Source of the DNA: an uncultured Thermoleophilia bacterium
Lineage (GTDB): Bacteria; Actinomycetota; Thermoleophilia; UBA2241
Assembly (NCBI GenBank): GCA_963741075.1
Contig: CAVUGS010000019.1
Location: 157,313-221,312 of the forward strand
Direction of reading: 5' to 3'
DNA: 64,000 nucleotides
Both the position numbers and the translations under genes were made by a program. The notes beneath the pieces were generated by a model, which was given only the letters and a program-made list of their open reading frames with translations, was not told the origin of the DNA and did no database searches. Positions 1 through 18,574 of the stretch are shown piece by piece; position 1 is the first letter of the stretch, and each line of letters opens with the position of its first letter.

Positions 1-7
1 GCTCTCT

Positions 8-24
8 CGGAACGCGACGTTCCG
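8..24. promoter_or_regulatory. Perfect inverted repeat CGGAACG-CGA-CGTTCCG, a candidate operator upstream of the first binding-protein gene
   Basis: Read directly: cggaacg at 8-14 and cgttccg at 18-24. Related CGGAA/TTCCG arms recur at 1801-1818. The regulatory role is inferred from position only. Confidence 0.3.
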
Positions 25-119
25 CGCCTCGGACTCTTGACGCGCCGCGCGCCGTCACCCCGACGATGCGTCATAATGTGAGCAACGTGTCCGCATTGTG
101 AGCATCCGGGGAGGACGAG

Positions 120-1514
120 ATGAGTACTGAGAACGACGGTCAGATGGGTCCAGTGACAGGCGGCGTGGCCGACAGCAAGGTGTCGCGCCGCGACTTCCTG
201 AAGATGGGCGCCCTGGCCGGCGCGGCCCTGGGCGTGGGCGGCGGCCTCACGGGCGCTCTCGCCGCCTGCGGCGGCAGCGACAGCGACAGCTCCGGCGGCA
301 GCGGCAGCGGCTGACGGCCGCGAGATCAAGATCGGCTTCGTCACGCCGCTCACCGGCCCGCTGGCCTCGTTCGGCATCCCGGACGCCTGGTGCGTCAAGC
401 AGTGGGAGGCCGCCGTCGCCGGACGGCCTCAAGTGCGGCGACGGCCAGACGCACCCCATCAAGATCATCGTCAAGGACACGCAGTCGGACACGAACCGCG
501 CCGCCAGGTCACCGGCGACCTCATCACCAACGACGGCTGCGACATCATCATGGCCGCGTCCACCGCGGACACCGTGCCGCCGGTGGCCGACACGTGCGAG
601 GCCATGCAGGTGCCGTGCGTCACCAACGACTGCCCGTGGCAGGCCTACTTCTTCGGCCGCGGCGGCGACCCCGCCGTGGGCTTCGAGTGGACCTACCACA
701 GCTGGTGGGGCCTCGAGGGCATCACCGCCACGTTCGTCGACATGTGGGACTCGCTCAAGACCAACAAGAAGGTCGCCGAGATGTGGCCGAACGACGGCGA
801 CGGCCTCGCCTGGGCCAACGAGAAGACGGGCCAGCCGCCGGTGCTCAAGGCGGGCGGCTACACCATCATCGACGGCGGCCGCTACCAGGACCTCACCGAC
901 GACTACTCCGCGCAGATCGGCAAGTTCAAGGCGGCCGACGCGCAGATCCTCAGCGGCGTCATGCTCCCGCCGGACTTCACCAACTTCTGGAAGCAGTCGC
1001 TGCAGCAGGGCTTCAACCCGAACATCGCCACCGTGGGCAAGGCCCTGCTCTTCCCGCAGTCGCTCGAGGCGCTCGGCGACATCGGCTACAACCTCTCCAG
1101 CGAGTGCTGGTGGTCGCCGAACCACCCGTTCAAGTCCTCGCTGACCGGCCAGACCTGCAAGGAGCTCGCCGACCAGTACGAGACGGACAACAACGCCGCA
1201 GTGGACGCAGCCGATCCTCCACTACGCCATCTTCGAGGTCGTCGCCGACGCGCTGAAGCGCACCACCAACGTGGACGACAAGGCGAACATCCGCGACGCC
1301 ATCGCCGCCACCGACATGGAGACCATCGGCGGCCACGTCACGTGGAGCAGCAGCGACAAGAAGCTCAACCCGGTGCCCAACGTCTGCACCACGCCGATCA
1401 CCGGCGGCCAGTGGGTCAAGGGCGACCAAGTACCCGTACGACCTGATCGTGGTCAACAACTCGCAGGCCACCGAGGTCCCGACCCAGGGCGAGCTGCAGC
1501 CGCTCGCGTACTGA
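120..1514 (+). CDS. ABC transporter substrate-binding lipoprotein, Leu/Ile/Val-binding (Liv/Peripla_BP_6-like) family, broken by at least 5 frame shifts in this assembly
   Basis: ORF 120-314 carries a Tat-like SRRDFLKMG motif and the lipobox LAACGG. Homology continues colinearly in other frames (GDLITNDGCDIIMAAS, FEWTYHSWWGLEG, WPNDGDGLAW, FWKQSLQQGF, ECWWSPNHPFKSS) to TAC TGA at 1512-1514. It is a paralogue of 12137-13544. Confidence 0.8.
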
Positions 1515-1602
1515 GAGGCCGACGGTGCGACCGCAGTCTGATAGCGAGAACGAACCTCGGCCGGGCGCCGCTGGACCGCGCCTGATCCGCCGGGTCGAGG
1601 AC

Positions 1603-1678
1603 GCGTCTCGCAAGTGCTTCCCTTGCGAGACGCCGGGGCGTCCGCCTTCCCCCCGAGGGCGGACGCCCCTTTCTCTTC
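1603..1678 (+). terminator. Two back-to-back perfect 12-bp hairpins, the second followed by a T-rich tail
   Basis: Hairpin 1 pairs gcgtctcgcaag (1603-1614) with cttgcgagacgc (1622-1633). Hairpin 2 pairs ggggcgtccgcc (1635-1646) with ggcggacgcccc (1658-1669), followed by tttctcttc. Confidence 0.55.
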
Positions 1679-1763
1679 GCGGCCGGCCGCGAGCGCTGCC
1701 TCGGCCGCGCCGCGCATCCGCCCGCTGCCGGCCGCGCGCCGGCGCGCGCCCGGCTCCCCACGT

Positions 1764-1829
1764 TTGACCTGCCGGCGGCCTCCGCTAGCGTACCGCTGAG
1801 ACGGAATGGCCATTCCGTGTAGCGGAACG
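1764..1829 (+). promoter_or_regulatory. Candidate promoter (TTGACC-N16-TAGCGT) followed by the palindrome ACGGAATGG/CCATTCCGT and a further CGGAAC half-site
   Basis: ttgacc lies at 1764-1769 and tagcgt at 1786-1791. A perfect 18-nt palindrome lies at 1801-1818, and agcggaacg at 1821-1829. Confidence 0.4.
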
Positions 1830-1870
1830 ACGTCGGCGCCGCGTGACGGCTGCGCGGCGCGGAGGGACAC

Positions 1871-4800
1871 ATGGCTGGGCAAGGACGGGCGCCGGACGGC
1901 GGCGCGGGCGGCGGGGCAGGCGAAGAGCGCGCGCTCGCCGAGACGCAGTTCACGGCGACGCTGGCGGGGCTCGAGGTCCTGCTGCGCACGACGGCGCGGC
2001 GCCACCCTGCGTTCGCCGCGCGCCTGCGCGAGCGCGACCTGGTGGCGCAGATCCGCCTCGCCGGCAGGACGCCGCGGCCGCGCCTACATCATCCGCGGCG
2101 GCAAGGTGCGCTCGCGCGCCGGGCTGCACCCGGCGCCGGACCTCACCATGACCTTCGACACGGCGGAGGTCGCGGCCCGCGTCATGCGGCCGGGCCGCGA
2201 CTACCTCGAGTTCATCGACGCGCTCAAGAACTTCCAGATGCGCGTCGAGGGCCCCGACGAGCTCGCCGTCTGGTTCTCCGAGACGCTGCAGATGATGCTC
2301 ACCGCCGGCCTCGAGTACGGCGTCGACGTGGGCGGCGGCGTGCGCCGCTTCACCAGCAACACCAACGGCGGCCCGGTGTTCGTCTACGTCAGCGACGGGC
2401 GCATCCTGCGCATCACGCCCATCGAGTTCGACGAGGACGACGCCGAGCCGTGGACGATCGAGGCGCGCGGCCAGCAGCTTCACCCCGCCGCGCAAGACGA
2501 CCGTCAACTCGCACACGCTCGCCTGGAAGTCGCTGATCTACTCGCCCGACCGCCTGCTCTACCCGATGAAGCGGGTCGACTTCGACCCCGACGGCGAGCG
2601 CAACCCGCAGAACCGCGGCACCTCCGGCTACGAGCGCATCAGCTGGGACGAGGCGCTCGACCTCGTCGCCGGCGAGATCAAGCGCGTCAAGCGCGACCAC
2701 GGCCCGGGCGCCATCATGAACGGCAGCGGCTCGCACCACACCTGGGGCGTGCTCGGCTACTGGCTGAGCGCCCGCATCCGCTTCTTCAACATCGATCGGC
2801 TGGACGCCGGTCGTGCACAACCCCGACAGCTGGGAGGGCTGGTACTGGGGCGCCGCGCACCACTGGGGCCAGAGCGCGCGCAACGGCGGCGGCGAGACCT
2901 ACGGCACCGTGGAGGACCTGCTCAAGCACGCCGAGATGGTCGTGTTCTGGTCGACCGACCCCGAGGCGACCAGCGGCGTCTACGGCGCGCACGACGGCAC
3001 CATCCGCCGCCAGTGGCTCAAGGAGCTCGGCATCCCGCTGCGTCCACATCGACCCGTTCCACAACCACACGGCCGCAGCTGCTGGGCGGCAAGTGGATCG
3101 CCCCGCGGCCGGGCACCGACAGCGCCATGGTGCTGGCCATCGCCCACGTCTGGATGACCGAGGGGCTGTACGACGAGGAGTACGTCGCCGAGCGCACCGT
3201 CGGGTTCGAGAAGTGGAAGGCCTACGTCCTCGGCGAGGAGGACGGCGTGGCCAAGACGCCGGAGTGGCAGGAGGCCGAGACCGGCGTCCCCGCGCGCGAC
3301 GTGCGCGCGCTCGCGCGCGCGTGGGGGACGAAGAAGACCTACCTCGCCGCCGGCGGCCTCATCGGCTTCGGCGGCGCCTGCCGCACGGCCACCGGCACCG
3401 ACTGGGCGCGCGGCGTGGTCTGCCTGATGGCCATGCAGGGCCTGGGCAAGCCCGGCGTCAACATGGGCTGCCTGCAGCAGGGCACGCCGCTCGACACGCA
3501 CTTCTTCTTCCCCGGCTACGCCGAGGGCGGCTACTCCGGCGACCTCGACCGGCACCGCGCTCAGCATCAACATGTACCAGCGCATGCCGCAGCTCGCCAC
3601 GGTCAACACCGTCGTCGCAGGTGGTGCCGCGCCTCAAGATCCCCGAGGCGGTGCTGGACGGCCACGTGCGAGGCGCTACCCCACCGACCCGCAAGTCCAT
3701 CGAGGGCCAGTTCCAGCGCTTCGAGTACCCGGCGCCGGGCCACAGCGAGGTCAAGATGTACTACAAGTACGGCGGCTCGCACTTCGGCACCATGACCGAC
3801 ACCAACCGCTTCGCGCGCATGTACCGCTCCGACAAGCTGGAGTTCGTGGTCAACCAGGGCATCTGGATGGAGGGCGAGACCAAGTTCGCCGACGTCATCC
3901 TGCCGGCCTGCACCAACTTCGAGCGCTGGGACATCAGCGAGTTCGCCAACTGCGGCGGCTACATCCAGCACGCCTTCACGCAGTGCAACCACCGCGTCGC
4001 GGTGATGCAGCACAAGTGCATCGAGCCGCTGGGCGAGTCGCGGTCCGACCACCAGATCTTCCTGGACCTGGCCACGCGGCTGGGCCTCGGGTCGATGTAC
4101 TCCGAGGGCGTCACCGAGCTCGACTGGTGCAAGCGGCTGTTCGACGCCACCGACCTGCCGCAGCGCCGTCTCGCTGGAAGGACTTCCTCAAGAAGGGCTA
4201 CTACGTGGTCCCGGCGCCGCCGGCGGAGCGCCGCGACCCGGTGTCGTACCGCTGGTTCGCGGAGGGCCGGGCCAAGGACACGCCCGAGCTCACGCCGCTG
4301 CCCGCCGACTACACCGAGGAGTTCGGCAAGGGCCTGCAGACGCAGTCGGGCAAGCTGGAGTTCGAGGCGTCGAGCCTCAAGCGCTTCGACCCCGACGACC
4401 CGGAGCGCGGCGCCGATCATGCGCTACGTGCCGGCCTGGGAGGGTCCGCACGCGCACGGAGCTCTACGAGAAGTACCCGCTGCAGCTCATCACGCCGCAC
4501 CCGCGGCACAGCTTCCACACGCAGAGCGACGGCAAGGACGCGGTCGGTCGAACGACATCCGCGACCACCGCGTCCTCGTCGACGGCCGCTACTACTGGAT
4601 CGTGCGCATCAACCCGCGCCGACGCCGCGGCGCGGGGCCTCGCGCAGCACGATCTGGTGCGCGTCTTCAACGACCGCGGCGCCGTGATCTGCGCGGTCCA
4701 GCTGACGGAACGCGTCCCGGCAGGTACAGTGCACTCCTACGAGTCGTCCGCCGTCTACGAGCCCGTGGGCGAGCCGGGGAACTCCCCCGACCGGGGCGGC

Positions 4801-4908
4801 TGCATGAACCTGCTCACGCCGAGCCGCATGATGATCCGCAAGGCGCACGCGCTGGCGGCCAACTCGTGTCTCGTGCAGATCGAGGCGTGGCGGGACGGCG
4901 ACGCATGA
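1871..4908 (+). CDS. Molybdopterin (bis-MGD) oxidoreductase of the pyrogallol hydroxytransferase / resorcinol hydroxylase large-subunit (AthL-like) family with an SCP2-like N-terminal extension; at least 8 frame shifts; start uncertain
   Basis: Fragments in three frames are colinear with the Pelobacter acidigallici transhydroxylase alpha subunit as I recall it. Matching segments include [104 protein letters not shown] and [22 protein letters not shown]. The stop is at 4906-4908. Confidence 0.75.
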
Positions 4909-4923
4909 CGCGAGAGGGGACCC

Positions 4924-5698
4924 ATGGCCAGGCGGTCGGACGAAGAAGGCGCGGACGGCGGGATGCAGGTGATCACGCGGGCGGCGGCGATCCTGGGCGC
5001 GCTCGCGGAACCTGACGGCGGCCGCAGCCTCGCCCAGCTGGCGGCGCAGACCGGCCTGCCGAAGACCACGGTCCACCGCATCTGCGCGGCGCTCGAGCAG
5101 GTCGGCTACGTGCACACCGAGGCCGCGAGCGGCCGCCGCGAGCTCGGCGCCAGCCTGCTCCGGCTGGCGGTGGTGGGCCGCCGCGACCTGGTCGCCCTGC
5201 TCGAGCCGTCGCTGGAGCGCCTCTCGATGGACCTCAACGAGACCGTGGACCTGGCTGTGCTGGACGGCGGCCAGGTCCTCTTCGTGGCCCAGCACCCGGC
5301 GCCGCAGCGGGCGCTCATGGCCATCGCCCGCGTTGGGGCGCACTTCCCCGCCTACACGCTGGCCAGCGGCAAGGCCCTGCTGGCGCGGCTGCCGCGCGAG
5401 GAGATCCTGCGCCGGCTGCCGCGGCGTCTCGAGCCCACGCTCGGCGGGCGCCCGCGCACGCGCGAGGCGCTCCTGCGCGAGCTCGACGGAGGTCCGCGCC
5501 ACCGGCCTCGCCTACGAGCGTGAGGAGATGCGCCACGGCATCTGCGCCGTGGCCGTGGCGGTCACCGACGTCGACGGCCGTTCGGCCTCGATCGCGGTGC
5601 CGATGCCGGCGGCGCGCTTCGCGGAGGCCGAGGAGCGGGTGGCGGCGGAGCTCACGCTGCTGCGCGACCAGACCGAGGCGAGACTGAACGGGGCCTGA
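4924..5698 (+). CDS. IclR-family transcriptional regulator (1 frame shift near 5488)
   Basis: The protein has an N-terminal wHTH (LAQLAAQTGLPKTTVHRICAALE) and an IclR effector domain (NETVDLAVLDG, GKALLA, ATGLAYEREE..GICAVAV). The C-terminal part is in the frame of ORF 5333-5698. Confidence 0.85.
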
Positions 5699-5708
5699 GG
5701 AGGCTGCG

Positions 5709-6472
5709 ATGAACGAGTTCGACTTCTCGGGCCGCAACGCCCTCGTCGTGGGCGCGGGCGGCCTCGGCGCCGCCATCGCCGCCGGGCTGGCCGCGCACGG
5801 CGCGGCCGTGGCGGCGGCGGACGTGCACGGCGAGCGGGCCGCCGCGCTCGCGCAAGGGCTGGCCGCGGCCCACGGCGTCACCGCCGCGGGGTTCGCCGTC
5901 GACGTCACCGACGAGGCCTCGGTGCGCGCCCTCGTCGCCGCGCGTGTCGCGAGCTCGGCGGCCTCGACATCCTCGTCAACGCCGCCGGCGCCACCGTGCG
6001 CACGCGCGCGGAGGACCTGGCGCCGGACGACTGGCGCCGCGTCCTCGACGTCAACGCCACCGGCACCTTCCTCTGCTGCCAGGCCGCCGGCGCCCACATG
6101 GCGCAGGCCGGCGGCGGCGCCATCGTCAACCTCTCGTCCGTGCGCGGCCGCTACGGCGCGACCTTCGGCCAGGCCGAGTACTCCGCCAGCAAGGGCGCCG
6201 TGGACTCGCTGACGCGTTCGCTCGCCGCCCAGTGGGCGGAGTTCGGCATCCGCGTCAATGCCGTCGCGCCCACCTTCGTCGAGACCGACCTGACGCGCGC
6301 CGTGCTCGCCGACGAGCAGTTCGCCGCCGGGCTCAGGGCCAGCATCCCGATGGGCCGCTGGGGCGAGACCGCCGACGTGGTCGGCCCCGTCCTGTTCTTC
6401 GCCTCGCCCGCGGCTGGCTTCGTCACCGGCCAGATCCTCTACGTGGACGGCGGTCTCACGGCGCGCGTCTGA
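5709..6472 (+). CDS. Short-chain dehydrogenase/reductase (SDR), 1 frame shift near 5955
   Basis: Motifs present: Rossmann VVGAGGLGAAIA, NLSSV, catalytic YSASK and PMGRWGE. ORFs 5709-6212 and 5996-6472 join colinearly. Confidence 0.85.
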
Positions 6473-6548
6473 CGGCGCCAGTCCTGCCGTCCGCACGCGC
6501 CGGTCCGATCCCCGGCGCTGCCTCGACCGTCGCCCGCCGCGGCAATGC

Positions 6549-6609
6549 TTGACCTCTCCCGACCCCTGCACTAGTGTTCGCATCATGGACTAGTTGTTCC
6601 GCATCGTGG
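6549..6609 (+). promoter_or_regulatory. Candidate promoter TTGACC-N17-TAGTGT followed by a tandem 11-mer operator (TCGCATCATGG / CCGCATCGTGG, 21-nt period)
   Basis: ttgacc lies at 6549-6554 and tagtgt at 6572-6577. The 11-mers lie at 6578-6588 and 6599-6609. The same 11-mer family recurs at 9366-9376 (- strand) and at 11922-11953. Confidence 0.45.
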
Positions 6610-6752: not shown

Positions 6753-7555
6753 ATGGCTGACCGTGAGATCTGGGGCGTCGAGAAGATCCGCAACCTGTTC
6801 GACCTGACCGGCAAGGTCGCGATCGTCACCGGCGGCTCGGGCGCGCTCGGCCACGACGCGGCCAAGGGCCTCGCCGCCTTCGGCGCCGACGTGGTGGTCA
6901 CCAGCCGCCGCGCCGAGAACCTCGAGGCGGCCGCCAAGGACATCGCCGACGCCACCGGCGCCAAGGTGCTCCCCGTGTCGTGCGACTGCCGTCGACTCCG
7001 AGAGCGTCGAGGCCATGGTCCAGAAGACCGTCGCCGAGTTCGGCAAGGTCGACATCCTCGTCACCGCCGCCGGCCAGGCCGACCGGCACCCCGCCGAGGA
7101 GTTCCCCATCGACAGCTGGCAGATGGTCATGGACTCGCTGGTCAAGGGCACGTACCTCTGCTGCCAGTCCGCCGGCCGCCAGATGATCGCGCAGGGCGGC
7201 GGCAAGATCATCACCATCGGCTCCGTGCGCGGCGAGTTCGGTCACCCGGGCGGCTACTCCGCCTACGGCACCGCCAAGGGCGCCGTGCACCTGCTCACCA
7301 AGCAGCTCTCCACCGAGTGGGCCAAGTACCAGATCAACGTGAACAGCGTCGCGCCCTGCATCTTCTGGACGCCCGCTGACGCAGCAGGTCATCGAGGACC
7401 CGGAGCTCAAGAAGATCTTCCTCTCGCGCATCCCGTGGGGCCGCGTCGCCGATCCTCAGGACTTCATCGGCGCCGTCGTCTTCCTCGCCTCCGCCGCCTC
7501 CGACTTCGTCACCGGCGAGATCATGGCCGTCGACGGCGGCAGCACCGCCGGCTGA
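6753..7555 (+). CDS. Short-chain dehydrogenase/reductase (SDR), 2 frame shifts
   Basis: An ATG at 6753 follows gagaggag. Motifs present: VTGGSGALG, GSVRG, catalytic YGTAKGA, and RIPWGRVADPQDF..FLASAASDFVTGE. TGA lies at 7553-7555. One indel is visible as gcccgc at about 7372. Confidence 0.85.
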
Positions 7556-7577
7556 TCGCCGGCCGCTGAGGAGGTCG

Positions 7578-8531
7578 ATGGTGAACTCGGAGAGCGGGGA
7601 GCGCATCGCCGTCATCGGCGGCGGCATGATGGGCGTGGGCGTGGCCCAGGTGTTCGCCGCCGCCGGGCACGAGGTCGCGCTCCAGGACGTGTACGACGAA
7701 GCCCTGGAGCGCGTCCCCGGCGCGCTCACGGCGAACCTGTCCTTCCTGGCCGAGCATGGCCTGTTCCCGGCCGACGGCGTCGAGGACGCCGTCGGCCGGG
7801 TCTGGACCACCAGCGACATGATCGGCGCCGCCGAAGGGGCCGACGTGGTGGTGGAGTGCGTGTTCGAGGACCTCGGCCTCAAGCAGAGCGTCTTCGAGCG
7901 GCTGGACGCTGCCTGCCCGCCGGAGACGATCCTCTGCACGAACACCTCGGTGATGAGCATCACGGAGATCGGCGCGAAGGCGCAGCACAAGGAGCGCGTG
8001 GTGGGCACGCACTTCTGGAACCCGCCGTACCTGATCCCGCTGGTCGAGGTGGTGCGCACCGAGCAGGTCGACCCCGGCGTGGTGGACCGCACCATGGACC
8101 TGCTGCGCCGCGTCGGCAAGCGGCCCATCGACTGCAAGAAGGACGTGCCGGGGTTCGTCGCCAACCGCCTGCAGCACGCGCTGTGGCGCGAGGCCATCTC
8201 CATCGTGGAGCACGGCATCGCCGACGCGGCCACCGTGGACGAGAGCATCCGCTTCGGCCCCGGTCTGCGCCTGCCGATCCTGGCGCCCATGGAGAACGCC
8301 GACATGGTCGGCCTCGACCTCACGCTGGCGATCCACGACTACATCCTGCCGCACCTCGAGGCGTCGGGTGAGCCGTCGCCGCTGCTGAGGGAGAAGGTGG
8401 ACGCCGGCGACCTCGGCTTCAAGAGCGGCAAGGGATTCTTCGACTGGCCGCCCGAGGCCGCCGACGCGTCGCGCAAGCGCCTGGTGGCGTATCTGGTGCG
8501 CGTGCTCGGCGACCCGGAACGAGGGTTCTGA
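7578..8531 (+). CDS. 3-hydroxyacyl-CoA dehydrogenase-family protein of the lambda-crystallin / L-carnitine-dehydrogenase-like type (intact)
   Basis: The protein has the Rossmann motif IAVIGGGMMGVGVA. HFWNPPYLIPLVEVV resembles the NPPYxIPLVE signature of family members that act on free 3-hydroxy acids. The ORF is a single 317 aa. Confidence 0.8.
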   Translation: MVNSESGERIAVIGGGMMGVGVAQVFAAAGHEVALQDVYDEALERVPGALTANLSFLAEHGLFPADGVEDAVGRVWTTSDMIGAAEGADVVVECVFEDLGLKQSVFERLDAACPPETILCTNTSVMSITEIGAKAQHKERVVGTHFWNPPYLIPLVEVVRTEQVDPGVVDRTMDLLRRVGKRPIDCKKDVPGFVANRLQHALWREAISIVEHGIADAATVDESIRFGPGLRLPILAPMENADMVGLDLTLAIHDYILPHLEASGEPSPLLREKVDAGDLGFKSGKGFFDWPPEAADASRKRLVAYLVRVLGDPERGF

Positions 8532-9497: not shown

Positions 9498-10434
9498 ATG
9501 GGCAAGAAAGTATTCGTTGACCTCAGCCATCCGTTCGGTGCGGACATGCCGCTGTGGCCCTACTTCACCAAGCCGGTGATCGACACGATGCACGGCCTGG
9601 CCAAGTCGGCGTCCTCAGCCAGAAGGTCACCGTCGTGCAGCACTGCGGCACGCACGCCGACGCCCCGCGTCACGTCATGGAGCGCGACTTCGCCGGCGCC
9701 CGCGCGCGGTACAGCCACGAGCTGCCCGTCGACGCCTACGTCGGCGACGCGGTCTGCCTGGACATCAAGATCGAGGACTGGGGCCTGATCAAGGGCGAGC
9801 ACCTCGACGACGCCTGCGAACGCGCGAACATCAAGCCCGAGGAGCTCAAGGGCATGGTGATCTGCCTGCGGACCGGCATGCACCTCAAGTTCGACGACAG
9901 CAAGGACTACTACCACTACTCCTGCGGCACCGGGCTCGACGCCGGCAAGTGGTTCCAGAAGTACATGCCGAAGTGCGTAGCCATGGACATGCAGGCGCTG
10001 GACCACCCGCTGCACACCGCCATGGGCAAGAACGGCCCGCACGCAGATGAACCTGCCCGGCAACTCGGGCCGGCCGATCACCGACGAGTACATCGAGAAG
10101 TTCGGTCGCGAGGCCTACGCCGAGTTCGAGCGGGACGTCTACATCGAGGTGTTCGGCATGGACAAGTACATGGAGGCCTACGGCGCAGCTCGAGCGCGCC
10201 AACCAGCCCGGGACCTGGGAGCCCTGTCACAAGCTCATGATGGGCAATGGCATCGTCGGCGTCGAGAACCTCGGCGGCGACCTCGACAAGGTCATGGGCA
10301 AGCGCTTCCGCTTCTTCGCGTTCCCGCTCCGCTGGTGGCTGGGCGACGGCTCCATGGTCCGCTGCGCCGCGGAGATCGACGAGGACGACGTGAACGACGT
10401 CCCGGACCGGCTCTACAAGTACGGCGTAATCTGA
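9498..10434 (+). CDS. Metal-dependent cyclase-family hydrolase (kynurenine-formamidase-like fold) with a long insertion; 3 frame shifts
   Basis: The N-terminus is MGKKVFVDLSHPF and the signature HxGTHxDxPxH is present as QHCGTHADAPRH. Four ORF-track fragments (9456, 9554, 10047 and 10237 frames) join colinearly, with the stop at 10432-10434. Confidence 0.7.
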
Positions 10435-10998: not shown

Positions 10999-11829
10999 AT
11001 GCCCAGACCGATCATCACCGCCGCCCTCACCGGCCCGGTAGCGACCAAGGCCGACAACGCCGGCATGCCCGGGAACGTGGCGGAGATCGCCGCCGACGCC
11101 AAGGCGTGCTACGAGGCCGGCGCGTCGGTCATCCACATCCACCTGCGCGACGAGCAGGGCGGCATGACGGCCGACCTCGACGTCGCCAGGCGCACCGTCG
11201 AGGCCGTCCGGGAGGTGTGCCCGGGCATCACCCAGCTGTCCACCGGCGGCCTGCAGTTCACCTACGAGCAGCGCATGGCGCTCGTGGAGGCCAGGCCGGC
11301 CATGGCCACGCTCAACCCCTGCACCATGACGTTCGGCACGGCCGAGTTCAAGAACCCGCCCAAGCAGATGATGGAGCTCGCGGCGCGGATGATCGAGCTG
11401 GGCGTCAAGCCGGAGGTCGAGATCTACGACACCGGGCATCTCGACATGATGCTCTACCTGGTGCACAAGGGGTTGCTGGTCGAGCCGCTGCAGGTCTCCT
11501 TCGTCATGGGCGTCCGCGGCGGCATGCGCGGCGATCCCCAGCTCCTCTCCTGGCTCGTCCGCGAGCTGCCCGCCGGCACCAGCTGGCAGGTCATCGCGGT
11601 CGCCAAGGCCAACCTGCCGATGACGACCATCGGCCTGGCCATGGGGGGGAACGCACGTACGGGTATGGAGGACACGCTCACGCTCAGCAAGGACGTGCCC
11701 GCCGAGTCCAACCTGCAGCTGGTCGAGCGCCTCGTCGGCATCGCCCACTCGATGCAGCTCGAGCCGGCGACCGTGCCCGAGGTGATCGAGCGGCTGAAGC
11801 TGCACCCGGAGCTCGTCAACGGTTCCTGA
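10999..11829 (+). CDS. Beta-keto acid cleavage enzyme (BKACE / DUF849, 3-keto-5-aminohexanoate cleavage enzyme family), intact
   Basis: The N-terminus MPRPIITAALTGPVATK..PGNVAEIAADAKACYEAGASVIHIHLRD is typical of BKACE. The ORF is a single 276 aa. Confidence 0.85.
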   Translation: MPRPIITAALTGPVATKADNAGMPGNVAEIAADAKACYEAGASVIHIHLRDEQGGMTADLDVARRTVEAVREVCPGITQLSTGGLQFTYEQRMALVEARPAMATLNPCTMTFGTAEFKNPPKQMMELAARMIELGVKPEVEIYDTGHLDMMLYLVHKGLLVEPLQVSFVMGVRGGMRGDPQLLSWLVRELPAGTSWQVIAVAKANLPMTTIGLAMGGNARTGMEDTLTLSKDVPAESNLQLVERLVGIAHSMQLEPATVPEVIERLKLHPELVNGS

Positions 11830-11860
11830 CGCCGCCGCTCGGGCCGGTCGGCGGACATGC

Positions 11861-11879: not shown

Positions 11880-11891
11880 CCCGTGCCCGCC

Positions 11892-11953: not shown

Positions 11954-12136
11954 ATAACCATGGAGGTGGTAGCACACCAGTGACGAGTCGCTGACGGATC
12001 AGCTCACGGCTGCGGAAGCAGCGACACGAACAGCCGTTCGAGCAGATCCAGGACCAGAAGGCCATCGGGGGGGTCCCGTGCTGCCTGCGTCGCCTCTGGA
12101 GGGCGGCGGGGTGGAGGGACCACACAAGGAGGCGGT

Positions 12137-13544
12137 ATGAGTTCTGAGGAGAAGACCACCAAGGCCACGGAGTCTGTCGTGAGGACGCCGCTCACGCGTC
12201 GCGACTTTCTCAAGACGGCCGGCGTCACGGGCCTCGCCCTGGGCGCCACCGGCGGGCTCGGCGGCGTGCTCGCCGCCTGCGGCAGCAGCAGCGACGACAC
12301 GAGCGGCGGCGGCGGCTCGGGCGACGGCCGCGCCATCAAGGTCGGCTTCGTCAGCCCGCTCACCGGCCCGCTCGCCGCCGTTCGGCGAGACCGACCAGTG
12401 GCTGGTCGAGCAGTGGAACAAGGCGGTCGTCAAGGACGGCGTCAAGTGCGGCGACGGCCAGACCCACCCCATCGAGATCATCATCAAGGACTCGCAGTCG
12501 GACTCGAACCGCGCCGCCACCGTCGCCGGCGACCTCGTCACCAACGACGGCATCGACATCATGATGGTCGCCTCGCACGCCGGACACCGTCAGCCCCGTC
12601 GCCGACCAGGCCGAGGCGCTGCAGGTCCCGTGCGTCTCCAACGACTGCCCGTGGCAGCCGTACTTCTTCGGCCGCGGCGGCGACCCCGCCGTGGGCTTCA
12701 CGTGGACCTACCACGCCTTCTGGGGCCTCGAGGACGTCACCGCCGTGTTCACCGGCATGTGGGACCAGCTCAAGACCAACAAGAAGGTCGGCACGATGTG
12801 GCCGAACGACGCCGACGGCCTCGGCTGGGCCGACCCCAAGACCGGTCAGCCGCCGATGCTCAAGCAGGCCGGCTACACCGTGGTCGACGGCGGCCGCTTC
12901 CAGGACGGCACCGAGGACTACACGCCGCAGATCAGCAAGTTCAAGTCCGCCGACTGCGACATCCTCAGCGGCGTCTTCATCCCGCCGGACTTCGTGAACT
13001 TCTGGAAGCAGTCGTACCAGCAGGGCTTCCAGCCCGTGGCCGCCACCGTCGGCAAGGCGCTCCTCTTCCCGGCCGAGATGGAAGCCATCGGCGACATCGG
13101 CTACGGCCTCACCACCGAGTGCTGGTGGTCCCCGTGGCATCCGTTCAAGTCGTCGCTCACCGGCCAGATCGTGCCAGGAGCTCGCCGACCTGTGGACGAG
13201 CGAGAGCGGCAAGCAGTGGAACCAGACGCTGCTGCACTACGCCGTGTTCGAGGTCGTCGTCGACGCCCTCAAGCGCACCAGCAACGTCGACGACAAGCAG
13301 GTCATCCTCGACGCCATCAAGGCCACCGACCTGCAGACGATCCAGGGGCACATCACCTGGTCGGCCGGCGCTCCGCTGAACCCCGTGCCGAACGTCTGCC
13401 GCACCGTGCTCGTGGGCGGCATGTGGACGAAGGGTACCGACTACCCGTTCGACCTCCTGCTCGTCGACACGCGAGCACGCCAAGGAAGCACCGTTCAACG
13501 TCGACATCCCGACGAACGGCAAAGTCGAAGCCATCAAGTACTGA
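12137..13544 (+). CDS. ABC transporter substrate-binding lipoprotein (Liv-type), paralogue of 120-1514; at least 3 frame shifts
   Basis: The N-terminus has the Tat-like [10 protein letters not shown] and the lipobox LAACGS. Colinear fragments follow ([62 protein letters not shown]). TGA lies at 13542-13544. Confidence 0.8.
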
Positions 13545-13627
13545 GAAACCGTGCAGACTCCGACCAGAACGCCTGATGTGGTCCCTGCACACGAGGAGGT
13601 CGATGTGATGCGGGGCGGTGAGATCCC

Positions 13628-14353
13628 ATGACCGTGGTCCTCGAGACCACTGGTCTCATGAAGTCCTTCGGCGGCGTACAGGTCATCGACGACCTGAGCA
13701 TGCAGCTGAACGAGGGCGAAGCATTGGGCATCGTCGGGCCGAACGGCGCCGGCAAGACCACGTTGTTCAACCTGATCACCGGCGTGTATCGGCCCGACGC
13801 GGGTCGGGTCACGTTCGACGGCAAGGACATCACCGGTCTCCCGCGGCAGGATCGCTGCCGCGCGGGGATCGGCCGCACGTTCCAGATCCCCAAGCCGTTC
13901 TCCGACATGAGCGTGTTCGAGAACGTGCTCGTGTGCGCCGCCTACGGGCGCAACATGTCGGAGCGCGCGAGCTACGAGCGCTGCGTGCAGACGCTCGAGC
14001 TCACGCGGCTCTCCCCCAAGGCCAACCACCAGGCCGGGACGCTCCCGCTGCTCGACCGCAAGCGGCTCGAGCTCGCCCGCGCGCTCGCCGGCGACCCCAA
14101 GGTCCTGCTTCTGGACGAGATCGCCGGCGGGCTCACCGAGGGCGAGGTGGAGATCCTCATCGCCACCATCAAGGACCTCCACCGCGAGGGCATCTCGATC
14201 ATCTGGATCGAGCACATCGTCCACGCCCTGCTGGCGGTCGTGCAGCGCATCGTCGCCATCAGCTTCGGGCGCAACCTCATCGAGGGCGAGCCCAACGAGG
14301 TCATGTGCAGCGACGAGGTACAGGCCTGCTACATGGGGGGGACGCCGCTATGA
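13628..14353 (+). CDS. ABC transporter ATP-binding protein (LivG-like), intact
   Basis: Walker [10 protein letters not shown] and Walker [11 protein letters not shown] are present, in a 241-aa ORF. Confidence 0.9.
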
Positions 14354-15051
14354 GCGTCGTCCTCGAGCTCAAGGACGTCGACGTCTTCTACGGCGACTTC
14401 CAGGCGCTCTTCAAGGTCTCGTTCGAGGTCGAAGAGGGCATGACCTTCGCCTTCATCGGCGCCAACGGCGGCGGCAAGTCCACGCTGCTGCGCACCATCG
14501 CCGGCCTGCAGCGGCCCAAGTCGGGCCAGGTGCTGTTCCACGGCGAGCCGGTCGACCAGTTTCCCGCGCACACGCGCGTGGGCATGGGCATCGCGCTCGT
14601 CCCGGAGGGTCGCCGCGTGTTCCCCAGCCTCACCGTGCGCGAGAACCTCGTCATCGGCGCCTACGGCGGCCGCAAGGGCGACTGGAACATCGAGTCGGTC
14701 ATCGAGCTCTTCCCGCTGCTCAAGCCGCTCATGAAGCGGCAGGCCTCGAGCCTCTCCGGCGGCGAGCAGCAGGCGCTGGCCATCGGCCGCGCGCTCATGT
14801 CCAATCCCGAGCTCCTCCTGCTCGACGAGGTCTCTCTGGGCCTGGCGCCGGTGGTCATCAAGCGCATCTACGAGGCGATGGTGCTGCTGGTCGGCAGCGG
14901 CCACACCATCCTCGTGGTCGAGCAGGACGTGCAGCACGTGCTGACCGTCGCCGACTACGTCGCCTGTTTCCTGGAGGGCAAGATCTCGCTGGAGGGCAAG
15001 CCCAGCGATCTGAGCTCCGAAGCCATCACCGCCGCGTACTTCGGGATGTGA
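14350..15051 (+). CDS. ABC transporter ATP-binding protein (LivF-like), intact
   Basis: The ATG at 14350 overlaps the upstream stop as ATGA. Walker A GANGGGKST, signature LSGGEQQ and Walker B LLLDE are present. Confidence 0.9.
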   Translation: MSVVLELKDVDVFYGDFQALFKVSFEVEEGMTFAFIGANGGGKSTLLRTIAGLQRPKSGQVLFHGEPVDQFPAHTRVGMGIALVPEGRRVFPSLTVRENLVIGAYGGRKGDWNIESVIELFPLLKPLMKRQASSLSGGEQQALAIGRALMSNPELLLLDEVSLGLAPVVIKRIYEAMVLLVGSGHTILVVEQDVQHVLTVADYVACFLEGKISLEGKPSDLSSEAITAAYFGM

Positions 15052-15055
15052 CGCC

Positions 15056-15929
15056 ATGACCTGGGCCAATGTAGCAATCCAAGGGATCCTTCTGGGCGGG
15101 CTCTACGCCCTGTTCGCGACCGGCCTGGCTCTGGTGTTCGGAGTCATGCGCATGGTCAACCTGGCGCACGGCGACCTCGGCATCCTCGCCGCGTTCGTCG
15201 CGCTCTTCATCGTGCAGTCGTTCGGACTGCCCCTGCTCTGGGCGAGCGTGGTCACGATCGTCATCATGTTCCTCGTCGGCTACGTGCTGCAGCGCGGGCT
15301 GCTGAACCACACGCTGGGCGCCGGACGACACGCGGCCGATCGTGGTCACCTTCGGCCTGTCGATCATCATCCAGAACGGGCTGATCATGTGGTTCTCGGC
15401 CGACTCGCAGGGCCTGGACGCCGGCAAGATCGAGAACATCAGCGTCAAGGTCTCCGAGCAGCTCTCGATCGGCTGGTACCCGCTCATCGTGTTCCTCATC
15501 GCCGTCGCGGTCATCGCCGCCCTGGAGCTGTTCCTCGCCCGCTTCAAGCTGGGCAGGGCGTTCCGCGCCACGTCGGACGACCGTGAGGCCGCCGAGCTCA
15601 TGGGCATCAACAACAAGCACATCTACGCGCTGGCCATGGCCATCGCGCTCGCCATCGTCGCGGTCGCCGGCGTGCTGCTGGCCATCCGCACGACGTTCGA
15701 CCCGACGCAGGGCTCGTTCCGCCTCATCTACGCGTTCGAGGCGGTCATCATGGGCGGCATGGGCTCCATGTGGGGCACGCTGCTCGGCGGCATCGTCCTC
15801 GGCGTCTCCCAGACCATCGGCACCCAGGCGTTCGGCGCCGGGTGGGGGCTCGTGGTCGGCCACCTGGTCTTCCTCACGGTCCTCGCCGTCCGCCCGAGCG
15901 GCTTCTTCGCGAAGACGGTGACGGCATGA
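15056..15929 (+). CDS. Branched-chain-amino-acid-type ABC permease (LivH-like), 1 frame shift near 15335
   Basis: ORFs 15056-15586 and 15342-15929 give a continuous hydrophobic protein (LAHGDLGILAAF, FGLSIIIQNG, AVIMGGMGSMWGTLLGG). Confidence 0.85.
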
Positions 15930-17017
15930 GCACTCCCGACGTGACTACTGCGGCCGAGGCCACTCCGGCCTTCCGCGTCGCGCGCTCGACGCGCATGCAC
16001 AAGTACGTGCTCGTCGTCAGCGTGATCGTCGTCGCCGTGCTGGCCAGCGTCCCGATGTGGGCGGAGGTCAGCGTCATGCGCAACATGGTGACGTTCTTCA
16101 CGCTGCTGGCTCTCGCCCAGATGTGGAACCTGCTGGGCGGCTACGCCGGCCTCATCTCCGTCGGCCAGCAGGCCTACATCGGCCTCGGCGCCTACGGGCT
16201 CTGGCTGCTCGGCGACGTCATCGGGCTGCACCCGTTCATCGCCGTGTTCGCCGCCGGCCTGCTCGCGGTGGTCGTCGCCCTGCCGGTGGCGCCGCTGATC
16301 TTCCGCCTGCGCGGCGGCTACTTCGCCATCGGCACGTGGGTCGTGGCCGAGGTCGTGCGGCTCATCGTCTCCAACATCCAGGCGACGGGCGGCGGCTCCG
16401 GCAAGACCGTCCTCTCCGCCGCCCGGCTCCCGATCGACACGCGCATCTCCGGCACCTACCTGCTGGCGCTGTTCGTGGCCGTCGGGTCGATCCTGCTCGT
16501 CTACTTCCTGCTGCGCTCGCGTCTCGGCCTCGCCCTCACGGCGATCCGCGACAACGACCTCGCGGCGCAGAGCTCGGGCGTCAACGTGTTCCGCTCCAAG
16601 CTCTTCGTGTACGTCATCGCCGCGTTCGGCTGCGGCGTCGTCGGCGCCGTCGTCGCCATGAACCTGCTGCGCATCCAGCCGACGGCGGCGTTCACCGTCA
16701 ACTGGACGGCGTACATGATGTTCATCGTCGTGATCGGCGGCTTCGGCACCATCGAGGGCCCGATCATCGGCGCGGTCATCTACTTCGCGCTGCTGCAGAG
16801 CCTCAGCCAGTACGGCACGCTGTACATGCTGCTGCTCGGCGTGGTCGCGGTCATCATGGTGACGCTGGCGCCCAAGGGCATCTGGGGCTACGTCGCGAAG
16901 CGCTGGAACCTGCACCTGTTCCCGGTCAGGCGACGGCTCGTGATGGACGCGCTGCCGCCCGAAGAAGACCTGAAGCCGGCCGAGAAGCCGGACGCCGCGG
17001 TGGCGGAGTCCGTCTGA
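15926..17017 (+). CDS. Branched-chain-amino-acid-type ABC permease (LivM-like), intact
   Basis: The ATG at 15926 overlaps the LivH-like stop as ATGA. The product is a multi-TM protein with LAQMWNLLGGYAGLISVGQQAY and GGFGTIEGPIIGA. Confidence 0.85.
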   Translation: MSTPDVTTAAEATPAFRVARSTRMHKYVLVVSVIVVAVLASVPMWAEVSVMRNMVTFFTLLALAQMWNLLGGYAGLISVGQQAYIGLGAYGLWLLGDVIGLHPFIAVFAAGLLAVVVALPVAPLIFRLRGGYFAIGTWVVAEVVRLIVSNIQATGGGSGKTVLSAARLPIDTRISGTYLLALFVAVGSILLVYFLLRSRLGLALTAIRDNDLAAQSSGVNVFRSKLFVYVIAAFGCGVVGAVVAMNLLRIQPTAAFTVNWTAYMMFIVVIGGFGTIEGPIIGAVIYFALLQSLSQYGTLYMLLLGVVAVIMVTLAPKGIWGYVAKRWNLHLFPVRRRLVMDALPPEEDLKPAEKPDAAVAESV

Positions 17018-17037
17018 GGCCGACCAAGCAGCGGGAC

Positions 17038-17069
17038 GCGCCGGGGGCCTCGCAGATGGCCCCCGGCGC
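17038..17069 (+). terminator. Perfect 12-bp GC hairpin after the permease gene (no T tail)
   Basis: gcgccgggggcc (17038-17049) pairs with ggcccccggcgc (17058-17069). Confidence 0.35.
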
Positions 17070-17111
17070 GGGACCCGATGGATGCTCGCCGCGCGAGCGG
17101 CGAGTCACGAT

Positions 17112-17129
17112 GCGGTCCGTCCGGACCGC
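17112..17129. promoter_or_regulatory. Inverted repeat GCGGTCCG-TC-CGGACCGC upstream of the third IclR gene
   Basis: Read directly. It shares the CGGTCCG/CGGACCG arms with 11861-11879. Confidence 0.3.
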
Positions 17130-17191
17130 CTGATGCAACTGCTGGTCATCGCCCCGGGGCCGGGGCTCGGGGCCATGAGGATGGAGGGGAC

Positions 17192-17971
17192 GTGATCGAC
17201 ATCGATCGCGACGAGGAGAAGGAACAGCGTAACGGCGTCCAGGTGCTGGCGCGGGCGGCCACCATCCTGCGGCTGCTGGCGGCCGACTCCTCCGGCGGGC
17301 TGACGTTCAGCGAGCTGGTCACCCGCTCGGGACTGCCGCGGACCACGGTCCACCGCATCCGCGGCGCCCTCGAGCACGAGGACTTCATCTACACCGACAC
17401 CGCGACCGGGCGCCTGCACCTGGGCCCCGGCATCATGCGCCTGGCCATGTCCAAGCGGGACCTGCCGACGGTGGTCAGGCCGTACCTCGAGCAGCTCTCC
17501 CGTGAGCTCAACGAGACCGTCGACCTGGGCGTCCTGGACGGCATGCACGTGCTGTTCATCGCCCAGCACCCGGCGCCGCAGCGCTCGCTCATGGTGGTCT
17601 CGCAGGTCGGCGCCAGGTTCCCTGCGTTCTGCACCGCGAACGGCAAGGCGCTGCTCGCGCAGCTGCCGCCCGACGAGATGAAGCTGCGGCTGCCCAAGCG
17701 GCTGGAGATCCCGGCCAGGCACACGCTGGTCAACCGCAAGGACCTGCTGGCCGAGCTGGACAACGTCCGCGCCACCGGCCTGGCCTACGACCGCGAGGAG
17801 CATCACGCCGGCATCTGCGGCGTCGGCGTCGTGATCACCGACATCGACGGAAGCTCGGCGTCCATCTCCGTGCCCATGCCGGCGGCGCGCTTCCACGAAG
17901 ACCCGGACACCGTCACCGCGGCGCTCCTGCGCGTGCGCGACGAGATCCAGGTCGCCCTGCACAACGGCTGA
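17192..17971 (+). CDS. IclR-family transcriptional regulator (intact; start uncertain, the ORF opens at 17078)
   Basis: The protein has the HTH FSELVTRSGLPRTTVHRIRGALE and effector-domain motifs NETVDLGVLDG, GKALLAQLP and ATGLAYDREEHHAGICGVGV. It is closest to the regulator at 4924. Confidence 0.85.
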   Translation: MIDIDRDEEKEQRNGVQVLARAATILRLLAADSSGGLTFSELVTRSGLPRTTVHRIRGALEHEDFIYTDTATGRLHLGPGIMRLAMSKRDLPTVVRPYLEQLSRELNETVDLGVLDGMHVLFIAQHPAPQRSLMVVSQVGARFPAFCTANGKALLAQLPPDEMKLRLPKRLEIPARHTLVNRKDLLAELDNVRATGLAYDREEHHAGICGVGVVITDIDGSSASISVPMPAARFHEDPDTVTAALLRVRDEIQVALHNG

Positions 17972-17975
17972 CGCC

Positions 17976-18574
17976 GTGGGGACGCGGTCGCAGCCACCGG
18001 CGCGCTCTGACGGCCCTTCCGTCGTCGCCGTCGTCGGCAGCCCGCGCCGCGGCAACACGGCGACGCTCGTGGCCGCGGCGCTGGCGGAGCTCGAGTCCCG
18101 CGGCGCGGCCTGCGAGACCATCGTGCTCAGCGACCTCACGATCGCGCCCGTGCCTCGCGCACGACGGCTGCGGCGAGCTTCGCCTTGTGCCCCCTGCGCG
18201 ACGACGCGGCGGCGGTGCTGGAGCGCGTGTACGCCGCCGACTGCCTCATCCTCGGCAGTCCGGTCTACTACGAGAACGTCTCCGCGCAGATGAAGGCGTT
18301 CATGGACCGCAACGTCTTCCGCTACGCCCACGACGAGTGGCTGCGGGCCAGGGCGGTCGGGCTGGTCGCCGTCACCGCCGAGACCGGTCTGCAGGAGACG
18401 CTCGACGCGCTGCGCCGCTACGTCGCCCTCTCCACGGACGGCGACCCGCCAGTGTTCACGTGCGGCGGGTACGCCGACGAGGCGGGCGCGGCGGCCGCCG
18501 ACGAGGCGCTGCTCGCCGAGGCCCGGCGTCTCGGCGCCGAGCTCGCCGACGCGCTGGGCCTCAGCCCGGCCTGA
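17976..18574 (+). CDS. NADPH-dependent FMN reductase / flavodoxin-like flavoprotein, 1 frame shift near 18170
   Basis: VAVVGSPRRGNT and LILGSPVYYENVSAQMKAFMDR are typical of the FMN_red family. ORFs 17976-18293 and 18185-18574 join colinearly. Confidence 0.6.

Follow-up and report, generated by a model that had tools for sequence, protein, structure and literature searches.

A probable locus for trihydroxybenzene catabolism via phloroglucinol, with a second transhydroxylase-like molybdenum enzyme, in an uncultured Thermoleophilia bacterium

Phloroglucinol is the hub of the oxygen-free mineralisation of tannins and flavonoids. A block of genes at positions 1-18574 of a 64,000-nucleotide (nt) stretch of DNA (the window) from an uncultured Thermoleophilia metagenome-assembled genome (MAG; contig CAVUGS010000019.1, assembly GCA_963741075.1) raises the question of whether members of this class take up trihydroxybenzenes and degrade them through this intermediate. 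A first-pass annotation had proposed such a function and had called the block a catabolic island. We conclude that the block probably makes up two thirds, on the right-hand side, of a locus that is conserved in Thermoleophilia and serves the oxygen-independent uptake and catabolism of plant-derived trihydroxybenzenes via the phloroglucinol pathway. The functional part of the proposal is supported by the orthology of two pathway enzymes, by a BKACE-family enzyme that does not group with the lysine-fermentation enzyme Kce, and by homology of a molybdenum (Mo) enzyme to AthL, the large subunit of the Pelobacter acidigallici transhydroxylase.

The pathway has been described in Clostridium scatologenes, where it comprises PGR (phloroglucinol reductase), DPGC (dihydrophloroglucinol cyclohydrolase), TfD [(S)-3-hydroxy-5-oxohexanoate dehydrogenase] and TAL (triacetate acetoacetate-lyase) (Zhou et al., mBio 2023; PMC10470551). 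PGR is a short-chain dehydrogenase/reductase (SDR), DPGC a Mn-dependent member of the cyclase family, TfD a protein with the 3-hydroxyacyl-CoA-dehydrogenase fold that acts on the free acid, and TAL a BKACE (PMC10470551).

The enzymes for ring opening and oxidation carry our reading. After repair of its reading frame (see below), the cyclase-family protein was 71% identical to C. scatologenes DPGC (CsDPGC) over the full length (81% for the orthologue in the related locus L011), and Wukongibacter and Acidaminobacter have orthologues with which it shares 77-78% identity. All five residues of the metal site (H, H, D, H, E) are retained, as is the W20-P-Y22 motif; Trp20-Pro-Tyr22, in which Trp and Tyr take the place of substrate residues of isatin hydrolase, sets DPGC apart from that enzyme (PMC10470551). 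Kynurenine formamidase (arylformamidase) was rejected: the protein scored 39.6 bits against the TIGR03035 cut-off of 223 and has 311 amino acids (aa) where these enzymes have about 206-210, and it matched kynurenine formamidase structures with 25 bits. Identification of this gene as a DPGC orthologue, about which the first-pass annotation had been less sure, is well supported by overall identity and diagnostic residues. The same holds for the dehydrogenase, which is 53% identical to C. scatologenes TfD (CsTfD) and 60% to the Wukongibacter protein, with the equivalents of the catalytic residues Ser122, His143 and Asn194 retained. L-carnitine dehydrogenase was rejected, with scores of 141-149 bits against NCBIfam equivalog cut-offs of 414-592; the protein groups with TfD, as had been proposed, and its reading as a TfD orthologue is likewise well supported.

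The DPGC gene also showed a distribution of its own. The window protein is 90-97% identical to those of loci L006, L009, L019 and L024, but only 73-76% identical to those of L002, L010 and L011, although the other genes of these relatives match the window at about 90% identity. This suggests allelic replacement or recombination of the DPGC gene alone. A third, short type of DPGC (about 265 aa, 40% identical) lies alongside the window type of BKACE in L022, L025, L026, L027, L051, L065 and L094.

For the reduction step two SDRs, SDR_A and SDR_B, had to be considered. As a PGR reference we used the locus (L030) of Clostridium thailandense, reached with a quantitative PCR primer from the supplement of PMC10470551 while C. 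scatologenes was sought. This locus contains PGR (ending in GGYWAN, as in the cloning primer for C. scatologenes PGR), a partial DPGC and a cupin; TfD and TAL were not found in its sequence. SDR_B is 42% identical to this Clostridium-type PGR and 61% to the SDR of the cupin-SDR-TfD-DPGC cluster of Wukongibacter, the corresponding values for SDR_A being 33% and 44%, and the Wukongibacter SDR and the Clostridium-type PGR share 39% identity. Two SDR clades thus appear to occupy the PGR slot, of which the Clostridium type is the only characterised one, and SDR_B falls in the other. From its position in the cluster and its 42-61% identity to the SDRs of this slot, we infer that SDR_B is a candidate phloroglucinol reductase. 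Searches of the PDB sequences with both SDRs were dominated by generic SDR matches and were not decisive. SDR_A is missing from the versions of the locus in L008, L010 and L012, in which SDR_B and TfD are divergent (58-60% identical to those of the window) and the second IclR regulator is missing or moved. Some species have therefore had the middle module of their locus exchanged.

The cleavage step is the weakest link of the pathway reading. The window BKACE (289 bits in Pfam) keeps the Zn ligands (H-x-H and Glu) in alignment with Kce. C. scatologenes TAL (CsTAL) has Trp16 in place of the amine-binding Glu14 of Kce (PMC10470551). In the window protein position 14 is Val, and across the window-type clade it is Val, Ile or Phe, while TAL-type proteins carry Trp there in Firmicutes but Met or Ile in Actinomycetota. 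The BKACEs of the Firmicute clusters were typed as CsTAL-like indirectly, as they carry WGALGI, the peptide encoded by the TAL-F primer; the window protein is 36-37% identical to them. Across the loci, the window type forms a clade of its own, whose 32 sequences share 34-39% identity with the TAL type and 38-43% with Kce. Two identities were rejected for the window protein: lysine-fermentation Kce (Val instead of Glu14; 260 bits against an NCBIfam cut-off of 382), with which it nevertheless shares fold, family, Zn ligands and 40% identity although the Glu14 that binds the substrate amino group in Kce is replaced, and a TAL orthologue (Val14, separate clade and the low identity just given, despite the same slot in the cluster). 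Since in equivalent cupin-SDR-TfD-DPGC cores the BKACE slot holds either the window type or the TAL type, and residue 14 is hydrophobic, the window BKACE is a candidate triacetate-cleaving enzyme. The earlier assignment of this step to a BKACE holds insofar as the protein is not of the lysine-fermentation type, but it is not a TAL orthologue and the step rests on gene position. A BKACE search of a large database gave no functional anchor, the 120 matches listed all belonging to uncultured relatives with 73-97% identity.

Is this assembly of genes conserved? Searching species-representative genomes with the intact BKACE product yielded 28 loci, nearly all from uncultured Thermoleophilia MAGs (many of them long-read "MFD" assemblies, a few Illumina). 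The first 22 kb of the window are collinear with the relatives at 77-90% nucleotide identity, and the same gene order occurs in about 25 species-level Thermoleophilia genomes, an arrangement far beyond chance. The G+C content is about 70% across the whole window, with no compositional break between the first 18.6 kb and the rest. Because the block matches its surroundings in this respect and the flanking core genes are the same in the relatives, we regard it as a stable chromosomal locus. A horizontally acquired island was accordingly rejected, and the term island, in the sense of horizontal transfer, does not fit a chromosomal locus that is collinear in some 25 species.

Outside this class, the cupin-SDR-3HCDH-cyclase-BKACE core is also present in Wukongibacter and Acidaminobacter, beside phloretin hydrolase, CoA-transferase and thiolase. 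Genes for AthL and for the small transhydroxylase subunit BthL, a protein with three Fe-S clusters and a C-terminal beta-barrel, stand beside the phloroglucinol core in a Sporobacter MAG (L102) and in many further Actinomycetota, one of them Actinobacteria bacterium RBG_16_64_13. The first-pass annotation knew of no such arrangement in a high-GC organism. The core has, however, been reported in such organisms: pathway clusters are listed in Mycobacterium, and the published DPGC table includes Actinobacteria bacterium RBG_16_64_13 (PMC10470551), while Rv1714-1716 of Mycobacterium tuberculosis were tied to a Clostridium polyphenol cluster in 2018 (PMC5894108). No link between Thermoleophilia and phloroglucinol degradation was found in the literature searched.

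Compared with the C. scatologenes cluster (PMC10470551), the window has the same four enzyme families in one cluster, with all diagnostic residues kept in DPGC (71%) and TfD (53%), and it shares the adjacent small cupin with the loci of Clostridium, Wukongibacter and Acidaminobacter. It differs in its BKACE, which is of another clade (34-39%) with Val instead of Trp at the key position, in the SDR of the PGR slot, also of another clade (42%, against 61% to the Wukongibacter type), in an ATP-binding cassette (ABC) importer with two binding proteins where C. scatologenes has a major facilitator superfamily transporter, and in IclR-type instead of sigma-54-type regulators. CoA-transferase, thiolase and phloretin hydrolase are absent from the window locus, and genes for Mo hydroxytransferases are joined to it. 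What sets it apart from the characterised system is thus the clade of its BKACE and that of its SDR, ABC transport with IclR regulation and a pair of hydroxytransferase paralogues, one of them carrying a fused sterol-carrier-type domain.

With the small cupin, a fifth gene of the pathway may have been overlooked. Its identity to the cupins of the Firmicute clusters is 52-57%, and of 51 loci, which range from Firmicutes to Actinomycetota and are not all independent, 46 have a cupin of about 115 aa no more than 4 kb away from DPGC. Its positions in other loci include 4665-5000 in L030, where it stands beside PGR in C. thailandense, 7865-8209 in L031 and 7861-8202 in L032. The 2023 pathway paper makes no mention of it (PMC10470551). 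Against the NCBIfam model for Rv1717 the window cupin scored 109 bits (E = 1e-31), under the cut-off of 175; Rv1717 of M. tuberculosis, also a cupin, has been described as a beta-galactosidase (PMC7873859). Rv1717 lies within a predicted five-gene operon, Rv1714-Rv1718. We take Rv1718 to be a DUF849/BKACE protein and Rv1719 to be an IclR-type regulator. Likened from literature descriptions, this operon with its regulator Rv1719 shares the cupin with the window locus; it differs in that mycobacterial DPGCs are of the short type (about 276 aa), like those of L022, L025, L026 and L027, whereas the window DPGC is of the long, 311-aa type, and in that no Mo enzyme has been reported there. The conserved context suggests that the cupin acts in phloroglucinol metabolism instead of, or besides, having beta-galactosidase activity, which would bear on the assignment of Rv1717.

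What, then, does the Mo enzyme at the left of the block contribute? Its L011 orthologue matched AthL (PDB 4v4c_A) with 1057 bits over the full AthL length and has about 165 additional N-terminal residues. The window enzyme itself is 56% identical to AthL, contains the AthL-specific domain 1 (PF21423) and keeps H144, D174, the Mo ligand S175, Y404 and Y560. Two types of large subunit occur in related loci. Type I starts with MGEVVRLTN... like AthL and is directly followed by BthL; type II is the window type, with the extension, and is 57% identical to type I (range 55-58%). The type II proteins carry 76 class-specific substitutions, including R153W, H154L and W354F in the presumed substrate pocket, where type I keeps the AthL residues. 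R153 of AthL reportedly takes part in substrate binding. The gene is thus a full-length AthL homologue, as had been noticed, but a divergent second paralogue with a fused domain and not a canonical AthL.

The canonical pair very probably lies immediately to the left of the window. In L011 the gene upstream of the Mo enzyme is a BthL homologue, and a genome scan for BthL found the order AthL(T1)-BthL-IclR-SBP1-AthL(T2)-IclR1 (T1 and T2, types I and II) in seven of seven window-type relatives (L033, L037, L038, L040, L052, L054 and L093), with BthL 1-2 kb upstream of the position that corresponds to the start of the window. The first base of the window aligns about 45 nt past the end of the upstream IclR gene, and by synteny the AthL-BthL pair and a fourth IclR gene would follow directly beyond it. 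The proposed linkage of the pathway set to a transhydroxylase homologue therefore stands for an AthL homologue in the block, though this is the second paralogue and the canonical pair would be off the left edge. In L041, L043, L044, L047 and L059 the order is T1-BthL-T2 with nothing between, as would be expected if both large subunits shared a single small one.

The N-terminal extension of type II gave no Pfam match even at E up to 10, the Pfam models for sterol carrier protein 2 (SCP2) remaining silent, and a search of 5.8 billion proteins returned 22 fragments, all of the same gene family. Prediction by AlphaFold2 from the single sequence was unusable (predicted local distance difference test score, pLDDT, 41). 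Based on an alignment of 13 sequences and modelled on the homologue P0245, not on the window sequence, it reached a pLDDT of 80-95 over residues 1-100. The best Foldseek matches of this model were UbiJ-SCP2, the SCP2 domains of alkylsulfatases and sterol carrier protein 2 (probability 1.00, target TM-score 0.64-0.69), and the top 38 matches were all SCP2 proteins or domains (probability 0.99-1.00). The extension is accordingly predicted to adopt the SCP2 fold, like UbiJ (PDB 6H6O/6H6P) and the alkylsulfatases SdsA1 and Pisa1, in which SCP2 is also fused to a catalytic domain; sequence identity to these domains is just 12-21%.

This fusion is a real and recurrent architecture. An exhaustive profile search found 720 representative clusters (50% identity) with the extension; among the matches listed, it sits at the N-terminus or close to it and is often continuous with AthL domain 1. 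One protein, P0269, is a clean full-length fusion of 997 aa that is 58.5% identical and lacks R153 and H154, as does the window type. BthL-like genes are adjacent to members of the fusion subfamily in L112 and L090. No description of an SCP2-AthL fusion was found in the literature searched. The contig that encodes P0269 (L112; ENA k119_164097, 39% GC, 7.7 kb) has a TAXI/TRAP-type transporter gene, the fusion gene and a BthL-like gene (50% identical to BthL) in a row, and no phloroglucinol core genes within its 7.7 kb. Most public proteins that match the extension (P0241-P0262) are truncated open reading frames (ORFs) that end in out-of-frame garbage. Broken versions of the gene have evidently entered the databases from frameshifted long-read MAGs, which may explain why the fusion has been overlooked. 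Further AthL-like paralogues, 34-38% identical to that of the window, were seen in MAGs of other Actinomycetota (L057, L062, L063, L069, L071, L074, L076, L087, L100 and L105), each with its own BthL-like gene (about 40% identical) and with up to three or four pairs in a row beside the phloroglucinol core. They point to a larger unexplored radiation of this Mo hydroxytransferase group.

Two characterised enzymes can be compared with the window protein. With AthL/BthL of P. acidigallici (PDB 4V4C) it shares a catalytic core that is homologous over its full length, together with PF21423 and the residues listed above, and its relatives have BthL homologues in the same locus. It differs by the SCP2-fold domain of about 160 aa, by the class-specific changes, by the lack, in this lineage, of a downstream gene for a small subunit of its own, and by coexisting with a canonical AthL-like paralogue in the relatives. 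Resorcinol hydroxylase (RhL/RhS of Azoarcus anaerobius), likened by description only, belongs to the same Ser-coordinated RhL/PgtL subfamily of dimethyl sulphoxide (DMSO) reductase-type Mo enzymes acting on hydroxybenzenes. Its reaction amounts to an oxidation and requires an electron acceptor, while the hydroxyl transfer by AthL is redox-neutral.

The genes of the block emerge only after frame correction. Spurious frames dominate the plain ORF list of the window, and a plot of G+C at third codon positions showed that the coding frame switches repeatedly within single genes of the block. We therefore used proteins from clean Illumina loci (L010, L011 and L007) as references in a purpose-written, frameshift-aware protein-to-DNA alignment. 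Removal of about 36 single-base insertions or deletions (indels) restored 17 full-length block genes, with zero internal stops and 73-94% identity to their orthologues. The Mo enzyme gene had 16 frameshifts, SBP1 5, SBP2 4, the cyclase 3-4, SDR_B and the flavoprotein 2 each, IclR1, SDR_A and permease 1 one each, and the other eight genes (about 6.2 kb) none. In the flanking core genes we counted 5 in argS (in 1.3 kb), 2 in rlmH, 4 in the 5-FTHF cyclo-ligase gene and 1 in a GGDEF gene, that is, 12 in 3.4 kb or 1 per 285 nt, a higher rate than the 1 per 477 nt of the block. Elsewhere in the window Pfam revealed artificial fusions and truncations, leuA/leuC and GGDEF/rlmH being falsely joined. 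Two single ORFs joining a DNA methylase with a family-4 glycosyltransferase (33102-35255, minus strand) and a homocitrate/isopropylmalate-synthase domain with aconitase/LeuC (56163-58428) are probably frame-error fusions. Over positions 1-22900 the errors are spread very unevenly and are mostly +1 insertions outside obvious homopolymer runs, a pattern that could stem from polishing trouble at paralogues or strain variants.

These frameshifts might instead be real inactivating mutations of a decaying cluster. Such an explanation would account for their uneven spread, with 16 in the 3-kb Mo enzyme gene and none in eight others, and for the preponderance of +1 insertions away from homopolymers. 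Decay is, however, hard to reconcile with stop-free repaired genes so similar to their orthologues, with four flanking core genes that exceed the rate of the block (the essential argS among them), with the artificial joining of leuA/leuC and GGDEF/rlmH in the same window, and with the many public proteins of sister long-read MAGs that show the same truncations with garbage tails. Because essential argS and other flanking core genes are hit at a higher rate, the indels are assembly or sequencing errors and the block genes are to be read as intact; we rejected a pseudogene cluster, which we consider extremely unlikely. Very unlikely, too, is a chance juxtaposition of unrelated operons, such as an importer of branched-chain amino acids, a module of the beta-keto-acid, carnitine or lysine type and an enzyme related to DMSO reductase. 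Three separate IclR regulators do suggest separate transcription units, and SBP1, SDR_A, IclR2 and the flavoprotein vary among relatives. Yet the order is kept in about 25 species, the enzyme set re-associates in other phyla with other transporters and regulators, DPGC and TfD show specific orthology, the BKACE lacks the amine-binding Glu of Kce, and the scores behind the automatic names are all under curated cut-offs. The sub-threshold NCBIfam names (Kce, gluconate 5-dehydrogenase, arylformamidase) were discarded as evidence of function.

Several points weigh against the catabolic reading as a whole. No pathway enzyme of the block passes any equivalog model in an NCBIfam scan, because the library holds no models for PGR, DPGC, TfD or TAL. 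SDR_B is only 42% identical to the characterised type of PGR and its best PDB match (5g4k, 159 bits) is named 'gluconate 5-dehydrogenase', and the BKACE belongs to a clade apart from TAL. The window contains neither CoA-transferase nor thiolase, and no BthL homologue was found within its 64 kb. The CsDPGC and CsTfD sequences were obtained by optical character recognition of text alignments in the PDF supplement of PMC10470551, and the host organism is uncultured. The Mo enzyme adds its class-specific substitutions, and its subfamily also contains resorcinol hydroxylase, so that the substrate is not fixed by family. In a narrower alternative the core pathway stands, but the SCP2-fused Mo enzyme is not a pyrogallol-to-phloroglucinol transhydroxylase. 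It would hydroxylate, or transfer hydroxyl groups to, some other phenol, such as hydroxyhydroquinone, resorcinol or one with an alkyl or acyl substituent, its SCP2 domain binding a hydrophobic substrate or quinone. We give this alternative slightly less than an even chance. The enzyme is as far from type I AthL as from Pelobacter AthL, the canonical AthL-BthL pair in the same locus of relatives would already cover the pyrogallol step, the nearest SCP2 structures bind quinone intermediates, alkyl chains or sterols, and the low-GC fusion P0269 likewise lacks R153 and H154. Retention of the Mo ligand Ser175 and of H144, D174, Y404 and Y560 speaks against it, and the substrate-binding role of R153 is putative. 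More tentatively still, the Mo enzyme could represent an undescribed subfamily of the transhydroxylase/resorcinol-hydroxylase group, with an SCP2 domain and a remodelled pocket, that is widespread in metagenomes, in Thermoleophilia shares one BthL with the canonical enzyme and funnels a second class of polyphenols, such as hydroxyhydroquinone or hydrophobic alkyl- or acyl-phenols, into the pathway, the BKACE clade and the cupin being further pathway components.

Under the phloroglucinol-pathway reading, which we prefer, the Liv-type ABC importer and its two binding proteins would import phenolic substrates, and Mo hydroxytransferases would turn isomeric or substituted polyphenols into phloroglucinol. 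The SCP2-fused paralogue, probably paired with a BthL-type small subunit, may act on a different, possibly more hydrophobic substrate or in a different step. SDR_B would reduce phloroglucinol with NADPH; the DPGC orthologue, on the strength of its orthology and active-site residues, is predicted to open dihydrophloroglucinol to (S)-3-hydroxy-5-oxohexanoate, which the TfD orthologue would oxidise to triacetate. The BKACE may then convert triacetate and acetyl-CoA into acetoacetate and acetoacetyl-CoA. Control of the modules could be exerted by the three IclR regulators, or four with the one outside the window, with the cupin, SDR_A and the flavoprotein in accessory roles, while acetoacetate activation and thiolysis would be encoded elsewhere in the genome.

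The pathway core has been known since 2023; new here are a subfamily of hydroxytransferases fused to SCP2, an alternative clade of BKACE and the conserved cupin. If our reading is true, an abundant uncultured lineage of soil, peat and digesters, the Thermoleophilia, has a complete module for uptake, hydroxyl transfer and ring cleavage. In Actinomycetota, the BKACE and SDR steps may escape annotation tools that rely on the enzymes of Clostridium or Flavonifractor. For enzymology, the SCP2-fused hydroxytransferase would be a new target in a group of Mo enzymes with only two characterised activities.

The features of the block are listed in Table 1. The genes named in the first-pass annotation were all found at or within a few bases of the positions given there, after frame correction only, and Pfam agreed with its family calls (BKACE, 3HCDH, PF04199, Cupin_2, adh_short twice, IclR three times, FMN_red, Liv-type ABC and AthL-like domain 1).

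Table 1. Features of the block after frame repair, in window coordinates, with the evidence for each (Mo-bisMGD, molybdenum-bis(molybdopterin guanine dinucleotide))
Feature	Coordinates	Strand	Evidence
SBP1, Tat-signal Liv-type lipoprotein binding protein	120..1514	+	Peripla_BP_6 and TAT_signal; 94% to L010 orthologue after repair; 5 frame errors
Predicted SCP2-fold N-terminal domain of Mo enzyme, about 160 aa	1871..2350	+	AlphaFold2 and Foldseek
AthL-type Mo-bisMGD catalytic core, type II paralogue	2351..4908	+	Pfam PF21423, PF00384, PF01568; gene 1871-4908, 16 frame errors
IclR regulator 1	4924..5698	+	Pfam; 1 frame error
SDR_A, second short-chain reductase	5709..6472	+	adh_short; 1 frame error
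SDR_B, candidate phloroglucinol reductase (PGR slot)	6753..7555	+	adh_short; 2 frame errors
TfD-type (S)-3-hydroxy-5-oxohexanoate dehydrogenase candidate	7578..8531	+	3HCDH_N and 3HCDH
IclR regulator 2	8556..9305	+	Pfam
DPGC, dihydrophloroglucinol cyclohydrolase orthologue, Mn-type site	9498..10434	+	Pfam PF04199; 3-4 frame errors
Small cupin, 116 aa	10449..10799	+	Pfam Cupin_2
BKACE-family enzyme in TAL slot	10999..11829	+	Pfam BKACE (PF05853), 289 bits
SBP2, paralogous Tat-lipoprotein binding protein	12137..13544	+	orthologue alignment; 4 frame errors
ABC ATPase 1, LivG-like	13628..14353	+	Pfam ABC_tran
ABC ATPase 2, LivF-like	14350..15051	+	90% identical to L011 orthologue
ABC permease 1, LivH-like	15056..15929	+	BPD_transp_2; 1 frame error
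ABC permease 2, LivM-like	15926..17017	+	BPD_transp_2
IclR regulator 3	17201..17971	+	Pfam
FMN_red-type flavoprotein, variable locus member	18006..18574	+	Pfam; 2 frame errors

The transporter genes make up a full ABC system of the Liv type. Its two binding proteins were confirmed as paralogous lipoproteins of the twin-arginine translocation (Tat) type, being 65% identical, each with the Tat motif RRDFLK and the lipobox LAAC; SBP2 has weak relatives in the PDB, the best at 31 bits. No operator-like repeats shared within the block were found, just paralogous coding repeats. Several relatives, L011 among them, lack the flavoprotein gene. Downstream of 18.6 kb the window holds ordinary core-function genes, and no CoA-transferase, thiolase, gallate decarboxylase or tannase gene was found there. 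Positions 35368-42828 encode a LarC-type nickel insertion protein, a formate-tetrahydrofolate ligase, an FTCD-like cyclodeaminase and NuoE/NuoF-like Fe-S flavoproteins; these genes hint at C1/folate metabolism and hydrogenase- or formate-dehydrogenase-type electron handling, fitting an anaerobic or facultative life.

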